64,000 bases of DNA from Pseudomonadota bacterium. Lineage in GTDB: Bacteria; Pseudomonadota; Alphaproteobacteria; Rhodobacterales; Rhodobacteraceae. Each line of letters starts with the position of its first letter. Positions within the stretch are counted from its first letter, which is position 1. This document shows positions 3,246-23,653 of the stretch, in pieces. The notes under the pieces were generated by a model. It was not told where the DNA came from and did no database searches. It worked only from the letters and a program-made list of their open reading frames with translations. The translations under genes and the position numbers were made by a program. The stretch is taken from NCBI GenBank assembly GCA_038532355.1, contig JBCBAT010000016.1, positions 9,159-73,158 on the forward strand, read 5' to 3'.

Positions 3246-4715
3246 ATGGCGAAAACCATCATGATCCAGGGGGCGGGCTCCAACGTGGGCAAGTCGATGG
3301 TCGTGGCGGGCATCGCGCGGGCGCTGACGCGGCGAGGCCTGAACGTGGCACCGTTCAAGCCGCAGAACATGTCCAACAATGCCGCCGTGACGGAAGATGG
3401 GGGCGAGATTGGCCGCGCACAGGCGCTGCAGGCACGCGCGGCGGGGCTTGCGCCGCACACGGATATGAACCCGGTGCTGCTGAAACCCGAAACGGATACC
3501 GGCGCGCAGGTGATCGTGCAGGGCAAGCGCCATGCCACGCTGCGGGCACCCGATTATGCGAAGGAAAAGCCCACGCTTTTGAAGGCGGTGTTGGACAGTT
3601 TCGCTCGGCTTTGCGACCGCGCCGATCTGGTCATTGTCGAAGGCGCGGGCAGCCCGGCAGAGATCAATCTGCGCAAAGGCGACATTGCCAATATGGGCTT
3701 TGCGGAGGCCGCAGGCGTGCCGGTGATCCTCGTGGGGGACATTGATCGCGGCGGGGTGATCGCGCAGGTGGTCGGCACGCAAGCGATCCTGCCCGACAGT
3801 GATCGCGCGCTGATCAAAGGCTTTGCGATCAACAAGTTCCGCGGCGATGTCAGCCTTTTTGACGACGGGCTGCGCGAGATTGTGGAGCGGACGGGCTGGG
3901 CATCACTGGGGGTGTTGCCGTGGTTTGCAGATGCCTGGCGCTTGCCCGCAGAAGACATCATGGATCTGCGCAGCAACCGGGGCGGCACGTTGAAGGTGGC
4001 GGTGCCGAAACTGGGGCGGATTGCCAATTTTGACGATCTTGATCCGCTCTCCAGCGAGCCGGATGTGAGCGTGGAGATCATTGAACCCGGCCGCCCCCTG
4101 CCCGGCGATGCCGATCTGGTGCTGATCCCCGGATCGAAGGCCACGATCCCCGATCTCAAGCATTTCCGCGACCAGGGATGGGATGTTGATCTGCACGCCC
4201 ATATCCGCCGGGGCGGGCATGTGATCGGGCTTTGTGGCGGGTATCAGATGCTGGGACGGGAGATTGAGGATCCGGACGGGATCGAAGGTGTTCCCGGTGC
4301 CGTGAAAGGGCTTGGGCATCTCAATATCAAGACGGTGATGAAGCCGCAAAAACGGCTGGCCCTGACCCGCGCGCGCGACCTGGAAAGCGGGGCGGAGGTG
4401 GAAGGTTATGAAATCCATCTGGGCGTCACGGACGGGCCTGATTGCGCCAATCCCTGGCTTGAGATGGACAGAGGCAAAGCCGGCGCGATGAGCCATGGGG
4501 GCCGCGTGCGCGGGTGCTACCTGCACGGGATATTCAGCGCGGATGCGTTTCGGCGGGCCTATTTGACCGGGCTTGGCGCGCGGTCAGACTTGTCGTTCGA
4601 GGACAGCGTTGAAGCCACGCTTGATGCGCTGGCCGCCCATATTGAAGCCCATCTCGATCTGGATACCTTGCTGGACTTGGCTAAGCCGCCGACCTTTGGT
4701 CAGAACAGCCCTTAA
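3246..4715 (+). CDS. cobQ: Cobyric acid synthase
   Basis: [13 protein letters not shown]-loop, [23 protein letters not shown], glutaminase [10 protein letters not shown] and GCYLHG. Confidence 0.97.
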
Positions 4716-17387: not shown

Positions 17388-18650
17388 TCAGCCGAACATG
17401 TCGGACGTGATGCCCGTGTACCAGCCTTCCGATTCCTCATAGGTCGCCTTGCGCACATCTGCGCTTTCGCCTGTTTGGGAAATGAAGCCATCCACCTTGG
17501 CGATCTTTTCTTCCGTCGCCTCGTAGGTCGCGCCCACTTTCACGCCGTCATTGGTCTCAATGAGCGACCAGCAGGTGTTGGAGAACTTGGCCGGGAACAC
17601 CTTCGATCCCGTCAGTGCCCCGCGCACGGCATTGGCGCAGACCTTGGCCTGTGAATTGGCCGAGAAGCCGGATTTGGGCATATCGCCCTGTTGGCTGGCA
17701 TCGCCCAGAACGTAGATGTCCGCGTCCGCCTTCGTGGACATATCCGCGGCGTTCACAGGCGCCCAGTTGCCATCGGTCACACCTGCCAGTTCCGCAATGC
17801 GGCCGGCCTTCATGCCCGGGATCACGTTGCAGACATCGACCTTGGTCACTTCCCCGTCGATCGACACGGTCATCGCACCGGGATCCACCGACACATTGCC
17901 ACCGCCGAAATCATCGCCGATCCAGTCAATCATGCCGGAATAGTGGTTGTTCCAGCCTTCCTCAAACAGCGCCTGCTTGGAAAACTTGGGCTTGGGATCG
18001 GCCACGAGGATCTTCGCGGTCGGGTTGTTGACCTTCAGATAATGCGCCACCATAGACACCCGCTCATAGGGGCCGGGCGGGCAGCGATAGGGGTTCGGCG
18101 GGGCGACCATGGCATAGGTGCCGCCCTGCGGCATGCTTTCCAACTGCGCGCGCAAGAGTTCCGATTGCGACCCGGCCTTGTAGGCATGCGGCATGGCGTT
18201 CTGCGCGGAAAGATCCCAGCCTTCGACCGACCCATCGACAAAATCGATGCCCGGGCTGAGGACCAGCTTGTCATAAGCCACCGATCCGCCACCTGCCAGA
18301 CCCACGGTCTTGGCGTCGCGATCCACGCCCACGGCCCAGTCATGGACCACGTTCACCCCATTCGCGGCCAGCCCGCCATAGGTGTGACCCAGATCATTCA
18401 TGTCCTTGAACCCGCCGATATAGAGGTTGGAGAAAAAGCAGGTGTAATAGCTGCGCGTAGGCTCAATGAGGGTGACATCCACCTCACCCTTGCTGTCCTT
18501 GGCGATGTAGCGCGCAGCCGTGGCCCCCCCGGCCCCGCCGCCCACGACAACCACACGCGGTTTGCCTTGCGCCATCACCATCGGCGCGGCCAAAGCGCCC
18601 GCGACGGCGGCGGCTGATCCGATAAATCCTCGTCTATTCAATGTCATCAT
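17388..18650 (-). CDS. soxF: Flavocytochrome c sulfide dehydrogenase flavoprotein subunit
   Basis: Tat NRRGFIG, VVVVGGGAGG, YRCPPGPYER, MPKSGFSANSQA, NTCWSL. Confidence 0.93.
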   Translation of the reverse strand: MMTLNRRGFIGSAAAVAGALAAPMVMAQGKPRVVVVGGGAGGATAARYIAKDSKGEVDVTLIEPTRSYYTCFFSNLYIGGFKDMNDLGHTYGGLAANGVNVVHDWAVGVDRDAKTVGLAGGGSVAYDKLVLSPGIDFVDGSVEGWDLSAQNAMPHAYKAGSQSELLRAQLESMPQGGTYAMVAPPNPYRCPPGPYERVSMVAHYLKVNNPTAKILVADPKPKFSKQALFEEGWNNHYSGMIDWIGDDFGGGNVSVDPGAMTVSIDGEVTKVDVCNVIPGMKAGRIAELAGVTDGNWAPVNAADMSTKADADIYVLGDASQQGDMPKSGFSANSQAKVCANAVRGALTGSKVFPAKFSNTCWSLIETNDGVKVGATYEATEEKIAKVDGFISQTGESADVRKATYEESEGWYTGITSDMFG

Positions 18651-18675
18651 ACTGTCTCCCATGTGATGATTTTTA

Positions 18676-19413
18676 TTATTCTAATTGGCCAAAATACGCG
18701 GCCAGCGCGGCGATCTCCTCATCGCCCAAACGCCCGGCAACCATTTGCATCACCGGGTGAGTCCTCGTTTTGTTTTTGTAGGCATGCATGGCGATCACGA
18801 AATCCTCCTCGGGCCAGAGCACGATGGATGGAATGCCGGTATCGCCGCCGGATGCCTGATGACAGGTTGTACATTCCCCGCTTAGATATTCACCGTATTC
18901 GGGGTCCCCCTTCAGCGCAAGGATCGCGGGATCAAGGTTATGATCACTCGCCTGTTTGGTGGGGGCGGCTTCGGGGATATCGGCCGGATCATCGGAAAAG
19001 GCGCGCAGATAGCCGATAAGCGTCGCCCGCTCGGATGCGTCTTTTATGCCTCGAAAGCTCATCCGCGTGCCGCTTGTCAGGCTGCGCGGGTCTTTCAGAA
19101 AGGCATCCAACATCTTGGCATCCCATGTCAGCGCGCCTGATTTTGCCCGCTGAAACGCCTCTGAATAGCGAAAATCCCCGTGGCTGCCCGCCACGCGCCC
19201 GAAAAGCCCGTTGAGATGCGGGCCAATCCCGTGTTCGGCCCCCTGTCCGATCTCATGGCAACCGCTGCATTGCTGAAACGCGTCCTCGCCCGCGGCCATC
19301 TGCGGATCAGCGGGGGCGTCGGCGGACGCCAGAACCACCTGCGCGGCGGTACCTTCCGCCAGCGCGGGTTCGGGGATGTCGGGCGTGGCGGAAAGGGCCG
19401 CCTCCTCACTCAC
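18676..19413 (-). CDS. soxE: Diheme cytochrome c SoxE (no recognisable signal peptide)
   Basis: Two CxxCH motifs (CSGCH, CTTCH), GPHLNGLFGR, GTRMSFRG; lies between soxD and soxF; GTG start overlaps the soxD stop by 8 nt. Confidence 0.82.
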   Translation of the reverse strand: MSEEAALSATPDIPEPALAEGTAAQVVLASADAPADPQMAAGEDAFQQCSGCHEIGQGAEHGIGPHLNGLFGRVAGSHGDFRYSEAFQRAKSGALTWDAKMLDAFLKDPRSLTSGTRMSFRGIKDASERATLIGYLRAFSDDPADIPEAAPTKQASDHNLDPAILALKGDPEYGEYLSGECTTCHQASGGDTGIPSIVLWPEEDFVIAMHAYKNKTRTHPVMQMVAGRLGDEEIAALAAYFGQLE

Positions 19414-20692
19414 CGAGAAAGGTGTTCAGGTACGCAATGATTGCTTCCTGATCTCCTTCCTTCTTGAGCCCACTGAATGCCATCTTGGTGCCTTTCATCG
19501 CGCCCTTTGGATCGGCGAGGAACGCGGACAGCGATGCTTCATCCCAGGTGCGGCCGTCCTCCATCGCGGCCTGGAAGACCTTGGAATAGGAAAACCCGTC
19601 CACCGATCCCATCACACGGCCCATCAGCGCATTAAGCTGCGGGCCGGATTTGTTCTTGGCCCCGTCGCCCACCGCGTGGCAGGCGGCACATTTCTTGAAC
19701 ACCTTTTCGCCTTGGGCCACCAGCGCGGCGGCCTCATCCACAGGTTCCGGCGCGGGGGCGGCGGCCTCCTCCTCTGGCTGCGCTGGAGCCTCTGGCACAA
19801 AGGCCGCGCCCTCGGCGGTAAACGACGGCAGTTCCACGTCGCGGTTGGGGTTCATTTCCGACACGCTGCCGCCTTCGGGCGGGGTATCCACAAGGAACAC
19901 GGTGCGCATGGTGATCGCGGCTTCATCCTTGCAGTTTTCCATGCAAGGCTCCCCGCGCCATTTGGAATATTCCAACTCCGGCCGGTCGTCGATGATGAAG
20001 CCCGTGGCGTTGTACATCTCAAACTCGGCGAAGTTTTCGTGGCTCAGCACGAAATCATCATCCACCTTGTCGTTGGAATAGAGGATATAGGCGACGATGG
20101 CATAGGTCTCATCCGCCGTCAGCGTGCCCGCCTCACCAAAGGGCATGGACCGGTTGATGTAATCCCACGCGGTCGACAGATGCGGCCAGTAAGACCCCAC
20201 CGTTTTCACCGGGTCTTCATCGGCCAGCGTATCAAACCCTCCGGCCAGAACGGGCCAGTTATCCACCCCTTCGGCGAAATCGCCGTGGCAGGCCGCGCAT
20301 TTTTCGGCGAAGACTTCTTCGCCCCAGAACACGTCTCCTTCACCTTCGGGCAGGCCGCGCCCATCGGGCAGAACATCGACATCCCACGCGGCAATCTCTT
20401 CCGGCAGGGCTGCGCGGCCCAAGCCGTAGCTGCCATCCGCCATCGGCGCAGGCGTGCTGAGATCGGCGACGCGGGTGAGCGCGGCCTCCTGTACCTCTGC
20501 GATCTTGGCGTCGAGGTCGGCGGCGCGTTCAGCCTCTGCCGCGGCGCGCTCTGACGTGGTGGCGACCTGCGTCTCAAGGCTCTCAATCCGGGTTTGGCCA
20601 TAATCACGATTGGCGATGAAGAGCGCCAAAGACAGCATCACGGCCACACCGCCAAAGATGGGCAGGTAGACAGTGTTAAGAGACTTCGACAT
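19406..20692 (-). CDS. soxD: Sulfane dehydrogenase diheme cytochrome subunit SoxD with an N-terminal anchor and stalk
   Basis: YGLGRAALPEEIAAWD, CAACHG, KTVGSYWP, SMPFG, second CAACHA domain. Confidence 0.93.
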   Translation of the reverse strand: MSKSLNTVYLPIFGGVAVMLSLALFIANRDYGQTRIESLETQVATTSERAAAEAERAADLDAKIAEVQEAALTRVADLSTPAPMADGSYGLGRAALPEEIAAWDVDVLPDGRGLPEGEGDVFWGEEVFAEKCAACHGDFAEGVDNWPVLAGGFDTLADEDPVKTVGSYWPHLSTAWDYINRSMPFGEAGTLTADETYAIVAYILYSNDKVDDDFVLSHENFAEFEMYNATGFIIDDRPELEYSKWRGEPCMENCKDEAAITMRTVFLVDTPPEGGSVSEMNPNRDVELPSFTAEGAAFVPEAPAQPEEEAAAPAPEPVDEAAALVAQGEKVFKKCAACHAVGDGAKNKSGPQLNALMGRVMGSVDGFSYSKVFQAAMEDGRTWDEASLSAFLADPKGAMKGTKMAFSGLKKEGDQEAIIAYLNTFLGE

Positions 20693-21941
20693 TTTCCGCG
20701 ATCCCTTCGGCGCTCACGTACCAGGTCTGGATACAGTTGTTGTGGTAGACAGCGTTTTCGCCCCGTTCTTCGCGCAGCTGATCCTTGGTGGGCTGCACGT
20801 AGCCCGTGTCATCCATCGCGCGCGCCTGCAGCAACATCGGCGCGCCGTCCCACTGGGTGTCCAGATAGAACCGCGTGAGCGCTTTCGGATCGCCCTGTTT
20901 GCCAAGACGGGCGGTTTCCCAGGTGATGCCGCCATCCTTGGACACATCGACGCGCGTGATTTGCCCATGCCCGGACCACGCAAGCCCCGAAATCACCAAG
21001 GGGCCCGCCCCGTGCTTGATGGGCATCTGAGGGCTGGGGGAGGTGATGACGGATTTTGCATCCATCACCCATGTCCATTTGCGCGCCGTGCCATCGGCGT
21101 AGACGTCCGTATATTTCGATGTCTCTTCGCGGCTTTCCACAGCGCGGTCCACCACCTCGATCCGGCGGATCCATTTGACCCACATATTGCCTTCCCACCC
21201 CGGCACCACCAGCCGCACCGGGTAGCCATGCTCCATCCGCAGCGCCTCCCCGTTGGCCTTGAAGGCAATGAGGCAATCATCCAGCGCCTTTTCCATTGGA
21301 ATGGACCGCCCGTTGGAAGACGCATCCGCCCCCTCCACATAGACCCAATTGTCGAGCGACAGATCGGCACCGGCCTCCTGCAAGAAGGTGCGCAGGGGCA
21401 CGCCGGTATATTCCATGTTGTGGATCATGCCGTGGGTGAACTGACAGCCATTGAGCTGCGCGCCCGCCCATTCCATGCCGGTATTGGCGGCGCATTCGCA
21501 GAAATAGGTGTGGTTTTCGCGGGGGAAGCGTTCGATGTCGTCATAGGAAAAGACCAGCGAGCGGTCGACCATGCCGTTGACCATCAGCCGGTAATCTTCT
21601 TTGCGCAGCTCAATCGCGCCGGAATGGTGCCTCTCAAACGCGCAGCCCTGCGGCGTGATCGTGCCTTCGAGCGCGTGAATGGGCGTGAAGTTGATCGAAC
21701 TGATCGGCGAGGCCGTCAGCCATTCCACATTGCGCCGCACCACGTGGGATTCAAATTCAATCGGCATGCCGTAGGGCGTTTCATCCACGCCTGCGCCGGT
21801 ATAGCTGGCCCAATCCTGCAATTCCGTGATCAACGGGTCAGGGCCGTCTGCTGCACTGGCCGCACCCGCGACGGTGCCTGCCGCCATAGCCGCCGACCCT
21901 TTCAGAAAGGCGCGGCGGGAGGTGTTTTTGATCTCACTCAT
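20676..21941 (-). CDS. soxC: Sulfane dehydrogenase molybdopterin subunit
   Basis: Tat SRRAFLK, AFERHHSG, FCECAAN, EHGYPVRLVVPGWEG, GLAWSG. Confidence 0.95.
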   Translation of the reverse strand: MSEIKNTSRRAFLKGSAAMAAGTVAGAASAADGPDPLITELQDWASYTGAGVDETPYGMPIEFESHVVRRNVEWLTASPISSINFTPIHALEGTITPQGCAFERHHSGAIELRKEDYRLMVNGMVDRSLVFSYDDIERFPRENHTYFCECAANTGMEWAGAQLNGCQFTHGMIHNMEYTGVPLRTFLQEAGADLSLDNWVYVEGADASSNGRSIPMEKALDDCLIAFKANGEALRMEHGYPVRLVVPGWEGNMWVKWIRRIEVVDRAVESREETSKYTDVYADGTARKWTWVMDAKSVITSPSPQMPIKHGAGPLVISGLAWSGHGQITRVDVSKDGGITWETARLGKQGDPKALTRFYLDTQWDGAPMLLQARAMDDTGYVQPTKDQLREERGENAVYHNNCIQTWYVSAEGIAENVEVS

Positions 21942-21955
21942 AAGGCCCTCATCTG

Positions 21956-23653
21956 TCAAACGCCGACAATTTCGACGCTGTTGTTTTCCGCCACCGTCAC
22001 GGTGCCCAGCTTGGCGATATGGGCTTCCACCACATCCCAGATCTGCGGCCCTTCGGTGTCCTCATTTACACTGGCCCATCCGGCCACGACGTAGTTGCGG
22101 GCGGGGTCGATGGGTTCGCCCGTGGCCAGCAAAGTCATGTTGGATATCCGGCTGCCCTGCGGCTGGCCCACGTCAATGCGGTAACCAAGCCCGCCCGTGC
22201 GCACCATGTCGCCGCCCTGCTGGTAATAGGGATCGGGGTTGAAGATGTTATCGGCCACGTCCTCCAGCACGACCTTGAGGAACTCGCCCGTGAATTCCGT
22301 GCGATAGGCCTCCCCATAGGACATGGACGTCACACCGAAAATGTCTTCCCGCGTGATATCCTGCCCGGGGATGAGGGATGGCCCCCAGCGCACACCGGGC
22401 GATAGCGCGATCTCCGCATCCCGTTCGCTCAGCAGCGCGTCGCAGATCAGATCATCCCATGTGCCGTTGAAATTGCCCCGGCGGTAGAGCAGGCTGTCGG
22501 TCTGGCCGATCACCTCCTCCATTTCCGCCTCAAAGGGCGCGCGTTCCATGTCAATGGCGGCAGCAACCTCAGCGTCCGGTTCAATCACATCGGCAAAGAT
22601 GGGGATCAGCTTGGTCTTGTAGCCCATCATCTGACCGTCGCGGATATCCAGATCCACGCGGGTGACAAACTTGCCGTTGGATCCCGACGGCAGGATAATT
22701 GTCTGCCCCACCAGCACCGGTTCGGGGAGCGCGTCATGGGTGTGGCCCGACAGGATGACGTCAATGCCAGGCACGACGCTGGCCATCTTCTTGTCCACGT
22801 CAAAACCATTATGGCTGAGCACGACAACGCATTCGGCCCCTAGGCTGCGCACCTCTTCAACCATCGCGGCCATGTTTTCATCGCGGATGCCGAAGGAGTA
22901 TTCGGGGAACATCCAGCGCGGATTGGCGATGGGCATGTAAGGGAACGCCTGCCCGATCACAGCCACCTTGGTGCCACCCCGTTCAAACATCTTGTAGGGC
23001 GGGAAAAGATCGGTGGGTTCATCCCATTCGGCATCAAAAATATTCTGGCCAAGTGCTGCGAAGGGCAAGCCTTCCACCAATTCTGCCACCCGGTCGGACC
23101 CCATGGTGAATTCCCAGTGAAAGGTCATCGCATCCGGGGAGAGCAGGTTCATCACGTTGACCATGTCCTGCCCTTGGGTCTTCAGCGTGGTGTAGGACCC
23201 GTGCCAGGTATCGCCCCCATCCAGCAGGATCGCATCGGGCCTGTCGGCGCGGATGGCCTTGATCACGGTGGCCACGCGATCAAGGCCACCCACCCGGCCA
23301 TAGGCCGCCGCCAGGGAGGAGAAATCACCGGAACTGAGCGCATAATGGCTGGGGCTGCCATCCTCGATTCCGTAAAGCTTGCGAAACGCCGCGCCCGTGA
23401 CATGGGGCACCGCACCCTTGTTGCCGCCCACGCCGATATTGATGTCGGGCTCGCGGAAATAGACGGGCTTCAACTGCCCATGAATATCCGTGACATGGAT
23501 GAGGGAGACATTGCCGAAGGTGTCAAATTCCAACAGCTGATCCTGCGTCAGCGCCTGCTGCGCGGCCAGCCGGGACCAATTGCCAAAGCCCGATCCGCCC
23601 AGGATGGCCGAGGCCGCCATGCCCACTTGCAGAAAATCACGGCGCGAAATCAT
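21956..23653 (-). CDS. soxB: Thiosulfohydrolase
   Basis: Tat SRRDFLQ, HVTDIHGQLKPVYFREP, LDGGDTWHGS, LSGHTHD, YQQGGDMVR. Confidence 0.96.
   Translation of the reverse strand: MISRRDFLQVGMAASAILGGSGFGNWSRLAAQQALTQDQLLEFDTFGNVSLIHVTDIHGQLKPVYFREPDINIGVGGNKGAVPHVTGAAFRKLYGIEDGSPSHYALSSGDFSSLAAAYGRVGGLDRVATVIKAIRADRPDAILLDGGDTWHGSYTTLKTQGQDMVNVMNLLSPDAMTFHWEFTMGSDRVAELVEGLPFAALGQNIFDAEWDEPTDLFPPYKMFERGGTKVAVIGQAFPYMPIANPRWMFPEYSFGIRDENMAAMVEEVRSLGAECVVVLSHNGFDVDKKMASVVPGIDVILSGHTHDALPEPVLVGQTIILPSGSNGKFVTRVDLDIRDGQMMGYKTKLIPIFADVIEPDAEVAAAIDMERAPFEAEMEEVIGQTDSLLYRRGNFNGTWDDLICDALLSERDAEIALSPGVRWGPSLIPGQDITREDIFGVTSMSYGEAYRTEFTGEFLKVVLEDVADNIFNPDPYYQQGGDMVRTGGLGYRIDVGQPQGSRISNMTLLATGEPIDPARNYVVAGWASVNEDTEGPQIWDVVEAHIAKLGTVTVAENNSVEIVGV

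Follow-up and report, generated by a model that had tools for sequence, protein, structure and literature searches.

A selected SoxE cytochrome without signal peptide in a marine roseobacter clade, and a possible +1 frameshift that would join it to SoxD

In the Paracoccus-type sox cluster (soxCDEF), the dihaem c-type cytochrome SoxE is encoded between soxD and soxF. Attachment of c-type haem takes place in the periplasm, and the apocytochromes are normally exported in an unfolded state by the general secretory (Sec) pathway. The SoxE protein considered here is encoded in a stretch of 64,000 nucleotides (the window, meaning the whole stretch analysed) from a member of the Rhodobacteraceae (GenBank assembly GCA_038532355.1, contig JBCBAT010000016.1, positions 9,159 to 73,158). 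Like the Paracoccus-type SoxE, it is encoded between soxD and soxF, has two CxxCH motifs and is under the same degree of selective constraint, and it is 62-83 % identical to hundreds of roseobacter SoxE proteins; however, an acidic, Ala/Pro-rich segment replaces the cleavable Sec signal that is borne by the more than 190 signal-bearing homologues compared in all. With respect to this segment, it resembles cytochrome c_y of R. capsulatus (6xkx/6xkw) and cytochrome c552 of P. denitrificans (3m97), in which a long, flexible, acidic Ala/Pro linker likewise precedes a c2-like or class I haem domain. While c_y and c552 each bear an N-terminal transmembrane anchor of their own, the window SoxE lacks one, the anchor closest to it being that of SoxD, which is read in another frame. 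The soxD/soxE junction in turn shares with prfB (encoding RF2) and other bacterial +1 shifts a short overlap that ends in a 0-frame UGA, as well as a UUU that can re-pair as UUC. We tentatively propose that some ribosomes shift +1 at this UUU_C and would thereby make a membrane-anchored SoxD-SoxE protein, a reading to which we assign a probability of roughly one in three.

The genes and segments on which this proposal turns are the following (positions refer to the window):

19406..20692, minus strand: soxD, 428-residue dihaem cytochrome subunit of the sulfane dehydrogenase SoxCD
18676..19413, minus strand: soxE, 245 residues from GTG 19413, dihaem c-type cytochrome without signal peptide
19294..19413, minus strand: N-terminal ~40 codons of soxE, acidic, Ala/Pro-rich and tether-like

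The window protein is homologous to SoxE proteins over its full length and has both haem sites (CSGCH at residues 49-53 and CTTCH at residues 181-185) together with the Met ligands; no second SoxE paralogue was found in the window's own genome. Among the 120 best matches in 5.8 billion proteins, all but three start with a classic Sec signal, apart from a few more that are truncated gene calls. The classic N-terminus consists of Met, Lys or Arg, a hydrophobic core and AxA, about 9 residues before AGEKVF…CxxCH, and such a Sec signal is also the rule in 80 genome loci, 80 metagenome loci and the genomes of the same genus. The N-termini were compared by the charge before the hydrophobic core (n-region) and by the best 10-residue hydropathy (KD10), with 117 other homologues as reference. 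None of these homologues has a negative n-region charge (median +1), and their median KD10 is 2.44. The window SoxE, with a charge of -5 and a KD10 of 1.44, lies outside their range, and L001 and L081 (two further signal-less lineages, see below) reach -2 and 1.08 and -2 and 1.99, respectively; the KD10 values of the window and L001 are below those of every intact homologue signal. By both measures, the window SoxE has no cleavable Sec signal, as the initial annotation had held. Neither is there a hydrophobic helix or a transmembrane anchor of its own in the soxE open reading frame (ORF), the frame being closed 4 codons upstream. Judged from these sequences, the loss of the signal is real and exceptional and limited to one clade.

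The signal-less SoxE proteins form a single monophyletic clade (Shimodaira-Hasegawa-like approximate likelihood ratio test, SH-aLRT, 99) that is nested among signal-bearing SoxE and belongs to a small marine roseobacter group. It comprises five lineages, namely the window, L181/L182, L001 (which shares the window's GTDB genus, G011), L081/L082/L083 and L183, which derive from different samples and assemblers; two of these five came from cluster look-ups. Further members were found neither in GTDB genomes nor in JGI metagenomes nor among 40 relatives. Among the three deep lineages, the pairwise numbers of synonymous substitutions per site (dS) are 1.2-1.9, and the corresponding nonsynonymous numbers (dN) for the SoxE body are only 0.11-0.14, giving dN/dS ratios (omega) of 0.06-0.09 as compared to a median of 0.097 in signal-bearing relatives; the two CxxCH motifs and the Met ligands do not vary within the clade. 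Because the clade is this deep and the SoxE body is constrained, the signal was lost once, long ago, with a haem-binding SoxE kept ever since. Given that a haem-binding protein is under selection and that c-type haem is attached in the periplasm, SoxE of this clade must still reach the periplasm, by some unusual way. The signal-less, conserved and selected SoxE is thus a real puzzle and not an annotation quirk, since c-type cytochromes cannot mature without export. On the practical side, pipelines place the N-terminus of this protein at five different positions, the public start calls giving lengths of 218, 220, 234, 237 and 245 residues, and find no convincing SoxE N-terminus. The shortest of these forms, P0200 with 218 residues, apparently starts at a CTG codon; P0202 has 220 residues.

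What stands in place of the signal resembles a tether. The N-terminus of the window SoxE reads MSEEAALSATPDIPEPALAEGTAAQVVLASADAPADPQMAAGEDAFQQCSGCH, and the segment of ~40 residues has a net charge of -7 without a single Lys or Arg. Within it, VVLASA|DA looks like the remnant of an old signal-peptide end. Its 40 codons are evolving rapidly (dN 0.42-0.56), in keeping with a linker or tail. The AlphaFold2 model of SoxE, with a mean predicted local distance difference test score (pLDDT) of 47.5, was too poor for fold searches; in this low-confidence model, residues 1-36 are without secondary structure. In composition, the segment, the internal linker of SoxD and the linkers of tethered SoxE proteins (see below) are alike, with 77-92 % of A/P/E/D/T/S/G/V/Q, almost no Lys or Arg and net charges of -4 to -14. 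In a PDB search, the alignments with cytochromes c_y (6xkx, 6xkw) and c552 (3m97) covered residues 10-143 of SoxE and thereby also its linker. The likeness to the interdomain linker of SoxD that had been remarked upon earlier is therefore upheld by the shared composition and extends to the tethers of c_y and c552. Taken as a whole, the window SoxE looks like a tethered cytochrome minus its anchor, the nearest anchor being that of SoxD. At the RNA level, the linker-coding part (19340-19400, minus strand) of the window can form a very stable, extended hairpin of the type GGCGG…CCGCC, with -43 kcal/mol for a 101-nucleotide fold (z = -3.2).

SoxD itself begins with an N-terminal membrane anchor and a coiled coil, which are followed by a haem-1 domain (residues 89-273 match PDB 2xts_B at 6.7e-73); an acidic Ala/Pro linker then leads to the haem-2 domain, which is c2-like (match of residues 326-425 to cytochrome c2/c552). 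In the window (20579-20680, corresponding to soxD residues 5-38) as well as in relatives, the N-terminal transmembrane helix of roseobacter SoxD looks uncleaved and leads into a coiled coil of 40-60 residues, and roseobacter SoxD proteins of this type are for this reason probably membrane-anchored. In Paracoccus, SoxD has a cleavable signal peptide instead.

Relatives in which SoxE is physically joined to SoxD or to its anchor came to light when a conceptual SoxD-SoxE fusion was used as query. This search did not find the in-frame, four-haem SoxDE of ~670 residues that the initial annotation had suggested looking for in relatives, but only chimeras with three haems and other architectures. The three-haem chimeras (P0127-P0130, P0123/P0124 and L178, 2776-4368) are single genes directly after soxC that stand in place of separate soxD and soxE genes; they encode 516-576 residues, with a c2 domain resembling haem-2 of SoxD joined to domain 2 of SoxE. 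One of them, P0129, represents 112 sequences, and no description of such chimeras was found in the literature searched. In P0121/L176 (3235-4944) and P0122/L177 (3501-5120), a gene in the soxE position, adjoining a normal soxD and preceding soxF, codes for a duplicate of the SoxD front end, with its membrane anchor, coiled coil and haem-1 domain, followed by a long acidic linker and a whole SoxE, and P0126 is a form of 716 residues in which the haem-1 domain is duplicated. Finally, L071 (2776-3681) and L050 (173-1180) encode SoxE proteins of ~300 residues whose N-terminus consists of a SoxD-like transmembrane anchor, coiled coil and acidic linker instead of a cleavable signal. A literature search, the coverage of which did not extend to the original Paracoccus soxE papers, returned nothing on SoxD-SoxE fusions.

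These fused and tethered variants fall at different places in the tree, apart from the window's clade, and SoxE has thus been tethered independently at least four times; such repeated and independent tethering suggests that holding SoxE near SoxD or the membrane is advantageous. With the window SoxE, the variants P0121, P0122, P0124, P0127-P0130, L050 and L071 have in common the acidic linker, the SoxE haem domains and the operon position, and in all of them SoxE is linked either with SoxD or with a membrane anchor of the SoxD type. However, they are single ORFs of independent origin, with three haems or a plain anchor, whereas the window would require a +1 shift, which would yield a four-haem product. 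For the tethering idea as such, they represent natural constructs.

The features of the junction at which this shift would have to take place are as follows:

19406..19425, minus strand: sole stretch in which a +1 shift can lead from SoxD to SoxE, from immediately past the +1-frame TGA to the soxD stop, six sense codons plus stop
19417..19420, minus strand: UUU_C, candidate +1 slip site, invariant in the five signal-less lineages
19411..19413, minus strand: GTG start of soxE, 5 nucleotides upstream of the soxD stop
19401..19406, minus strand: perfect AGGAGG Shine-Dalgarno (SD) hexamer, overlapping the soxD stop, inside the invariant block TGAGGAGGCGGC
19401..19421, minus strand: possible weak hairpin, putative, CUUUCUCG, a loop of 5 nucleotides and UGAGGAGG

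On the minus strand, the last codons of soxD are AAC ACC TTT CTC GGT GAG, followed by the TGA stop at 19408-19406. The frame of soxE lies +1 relative to that of soxD, is closed by TGA at 19428-19426, continues with ACA CCT TTC TCG and arrives at GTG 19413-19411; it is thus open just 4 codons before its GTG, the start/stop overlap amounts to 8 nucleotides, and the translation begins (M/V)SEEAALSATPDIPEPALAEGTAAQVVLASADAPADPQMAAGEDAFQQCSGCH. Re-reading of the sequence reproduced all of these details as they had been annotated before. The accompanying statement that no SD-like sequence is near the GTG was correct for the upstream side, where none is present at the junction, but had missed the perfect AGGAGG (19406-19401) on the downstream side of the GTG, in overlap with the soxD stop.

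The five signal-less lineages agree in the +1 offset of soxE from soxD and in the invariant blocks ACCTTTCTCG and TGAGGAGGCGGC, and differ only in the 5 nucleotides between these blocks (GTGAG, GTGAC, ATGAG, ATCCG and ATCCA). The start position within the overlap is consequently GTG in the window and L181, ATG in L001 and ATC, which is not a start codon, in L081 and L183. Downstream of AGGAGG, a GTG follows at a distance of 11 nucleotides in L081 and L183 and of 14 nucleotides in L001, whereas the window has no start codon there. In none of the lineages are SoxD and SoxE read as a single ORF, the UGA stop and the +1 offset interrupting the reading in 5/5. The +1 frame of soxE is shared by signal-bearing relatives (L003, L009, L016, L020, L033 and others), in which the start overlaps the soxD stop or lies 4 nucleotides past it. 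Because these relatives already have the same layout, the +1 offset represents ancestral translational coupling and is not by itself evidence of a broken fusion.

Starting from this ancestral junction of adjacent genes with overlapping start and stop, we envisage that the SoxE signal peptide decayed, in one roseobacter clade, into an acidic, flexible tether. Near the end of soxD, a fraction of the ribosomes would slip +1 on the invariant UUU_C, inside the overlap and ahead of the stop, when tRNA-Phe(GAA) moves from a wobble pair on UUU to a Watson-Crick pair on UUC. The shifted ribosomes would continue into soxE and produce a tetrahaem SoxD-SoxE of ~671 residues, reading …EAIIAYLNTFSVSEE… at the shift site. 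This fusion would be targeted and anchored by the N-terminal transmembrane helix of SoxD, and the former signal-peptide region would serve as an interdomain linker that keeps SoxE beside SoxCD. The data establish the geometry of the junction, the loss of the signal and its conservation, the selection on SoxE and the occurrence of tethered and fused SoxE in relatives; the frameshift, its site and its efficiency we infer. The site would be UUU_C as the only re-pairing site in AAC ACC UUU CUC GGU GAG UGA; it is held within ACCTTTCTCG and thus invariant in 5/5 lineages, while the next 5 nucleotides vary, and the codons before UGA (GAG, GAC, CCG or CCA, depending on the lineage) cannot re-pair. Sites of the UUU-pyrimidine type can shift +1 at high levels without a pause codon, for example UUU UAU in argI, as cited in PMC2790909. 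Among the routes considered, a +1 slip is the only one that has a known mechanism and also explains the tether-like segment.

A considerable number of observations nevertheless weigh against a slip at this position. The features that make +1 sites efficient (PMC2790909) are absent at this junction: the codon that follows UUU is CUC, which is common (15.4 per 1000) and served by a tRNA-Leu(GAG) that is present; an SD-like stimulator is missing upstream of UUU_C, where the sequence is UACCUGAACACC, the only AGGAGG lying 11 nucleotides downstream of UUU_C; and no conserved downstream RNA stimulator was found, the consensus fold showing little covariation and a significantly stable hairpin being present in the window alone (z = -3.2), not in L001 or L081. 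In these respects the junction differs from prfB, as it does in that the slippery codon is beside neither the stop nor a rare codon and in that the downstream gene has start codons and an SD of its own. A start codon that could be used lies close to the junction in each lineage, together with the perfect AGGAGG, and this conservation suggests that separate initiation of soxE has been maintained. The +1 geometry was inherited from signal-bearing ancestors, the change of one nucleotide that would make the fusion constitutive is fixed in no lineage despite dS > 1, and synonymous sites are highly conserved at the junction but also elsewhere in the genes; the search described above, moreover, found no four-haem SoxDE in frame. 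Slippage at UUU-C, which the initial annotation had listed among its explanations, is thus favoured by the invariant site and by the fused or tethered relatives with similar linkers, and disfavoured by the lack of a rare A-site codon and of an upstream stimulator and by soxE's own start and SD.

Three other translational routes were discarded. Read-through of the stop or insertion of selenocysteine is not compatible with the 0-frame past UGA, which is not conserved and ends within 11-34 codons. A forward hop over the stop from GAG to GAG (GAG-U-GAG) would work from the GAG of the window and L001, whereas the remaining lineages have GAC, CCG or CCA as take-off codon, so that it does not serve as a shared mechanism. 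A hungry-codon model fails on the common CUC and its tRNA. As for the 8-bp hairpin of CUUUCUCG and UGAGGAGG, the former is anti-SD-like, the latter comprises the soxD stop and the perfect SD, and all variation of the junction among the five lineages falls into the loop of 5 nucleotides; with -7 to -9 kcal/mol it is no better than shuffled sequences and shows no covariation. If formed, it could sequester both SD and stop and in this way gate the translation of soxE.

For the alternatives to a SoxD-SoxE fusion, the neighbours of soxD and soxE in the soxCDEF block come into play:

20676..21959, minus strand: soxC, molybdenum subunit of SoxCD, with twin-arginine signal (TIGR04555 match at 4.5e-174)
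17388..18662, minus strand: soxF, FCSD-type flavoprotein with twin-arginine signal, directly 3' of soxE

The main rival to a +1 slip is a separate SoxE that is translated by re-initiation, either at the GTG or ATG overlapping the soxD stop or, in L081 and L183, at the GTG after AGGAGG, and exported without a Sec signal by a non-canonical route; we consider it unlikely, albeit with a real share of the probability. Conservation of AGGAGG and nearby starts in five lineages agrees with it, as do the canonical arrangement of SD, 11 nucleotides and GTG in L081 and L183 and the fact that coupled, overlapping junctions are usual in relatives; the window and L181, however, lack a start codon downstream of the SD. 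Such a protein might cross the membrane by hitch-hiking on SoxF or SoxC as partners of the twin-arginine translocation (Tat) pathway, or else, stranger still, enter the Sec channel because the translocon-docked ribosome is handed from SoxD to SoxE and re-initiates there. Possible Tat partners are indeed at hand, since SoxF, a member of the FCSD flavoprotein family, carries MTLNRRGFIGS and SoxC carries SRRAFLKGS, and in each of the window, L001, L081, L181 and L183, soxE is followed by soxF with its RR signal. A precedent from the Sox pathway itself is SoxZ, which has no signal peptide and is exported with the Tat-targeted SoxY. Yet Tat hitch-hikers fold and bind their partner in the cytoplasm, which would conflict with the attachment of haem to unfolded SoxE apocytochrome in the periplasm; c-type cytochromes normally travel unfolded via Sec, and an unfolded apocytochrome of 245 residues would be a poor passenger for Tat. 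The n-region is strongly acidic in the window and also negative in L001 and L081, with a sub-threshold hydrophobic stretch, and we know of no mechanism that fits non-canonical export of a separate SoxE.

The degenerate N-terminus might instead still act as a weak, atypical Sec signal that is cleaved (at VVLASA|DA, HLAAA|EP or AVAAA|TR). Short Ala/Val-rich stretches and AxA-like motifs do occur where the homologues are cleaved, and the hydrophobicity of L081 comes near the 5th percentile of real signals; nonetheless, no lineage has the positive n-region, a negative one is found in 0/117 homologues, the hydrophobicity of the window and L001 is below all intact homologue signals, and the segment evolves almost freely, all of which makes this explanation improbable. 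Similarly improbable is that export was abandoned altogether in this clade, with soxE as a decaying gene or its product as a cytoplasmic protein with a new role: the missing signal peptide and the inconsistent start calls would agree with this, but the ORF has stayed intact in five lineages across dS 1.2-1.9 with an omega as in exported homologues, and invariant CxxCH motifs and Met ligands are sensible only if haem is attached. Lastly, the one-base frame offset, and nothing else, might point to an assembly or sequencing error in a true in-frame soxDE. This has next to no probability, as the same frame with differing junction bases recurs in all five lineages, for which samples and assemblers differ, the signal-bearing relatives share the +1 layout and the site has no homopolymer. 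The explanation put forward in the initial annotation, namely that an indel of one nucleotide, real or artefactual, had broken a fusion, is thereby rejected, considering also that SoxE is under purifying selection, that the layout is ancestral and that four-haem SoxDE proteins were not found.

Returning to the +1 slip at UUU_C, it would, if true, add a rare case of programmed frameshifting in a cellular gene whose rationale is export and tethering. It would fix the ratio of SoxD to SoxDE, hard-wire the sulfane dehydrogenase SoxCD to an electron-accepting cytochrome and point to SoxE, whose part in the Sox system is ill-defined so far, as the electron acceptor dedicated to SoxCD. That a sox operon indeed harbours cellular +1 recoding outside of mobile elements, yielding SoxD alongside an anchored tetrahaem SoxD-SoxE and leaving export wholly to the SoxD anchor, is conceivable but on the whole doubtful.

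Two peculiarities of individual contigs deserve mention. In L001, soxF (4045-4557) lies at the end of a contig of a metagenome-assembled genome and diverges abruptly after ~140 residues into …IGKRPIFASGNSDGDFAMLE, which is unrelated to SoxF; this is probably a chimeric contig end. In L116 (metagenome contig OJEX01003507.1), the 5' end of the soxE ORF starts with …GDVYKRQ…, which we take to be the translated Nextera transposase adaptor, and this end would then be adaptor-derived and not biological.

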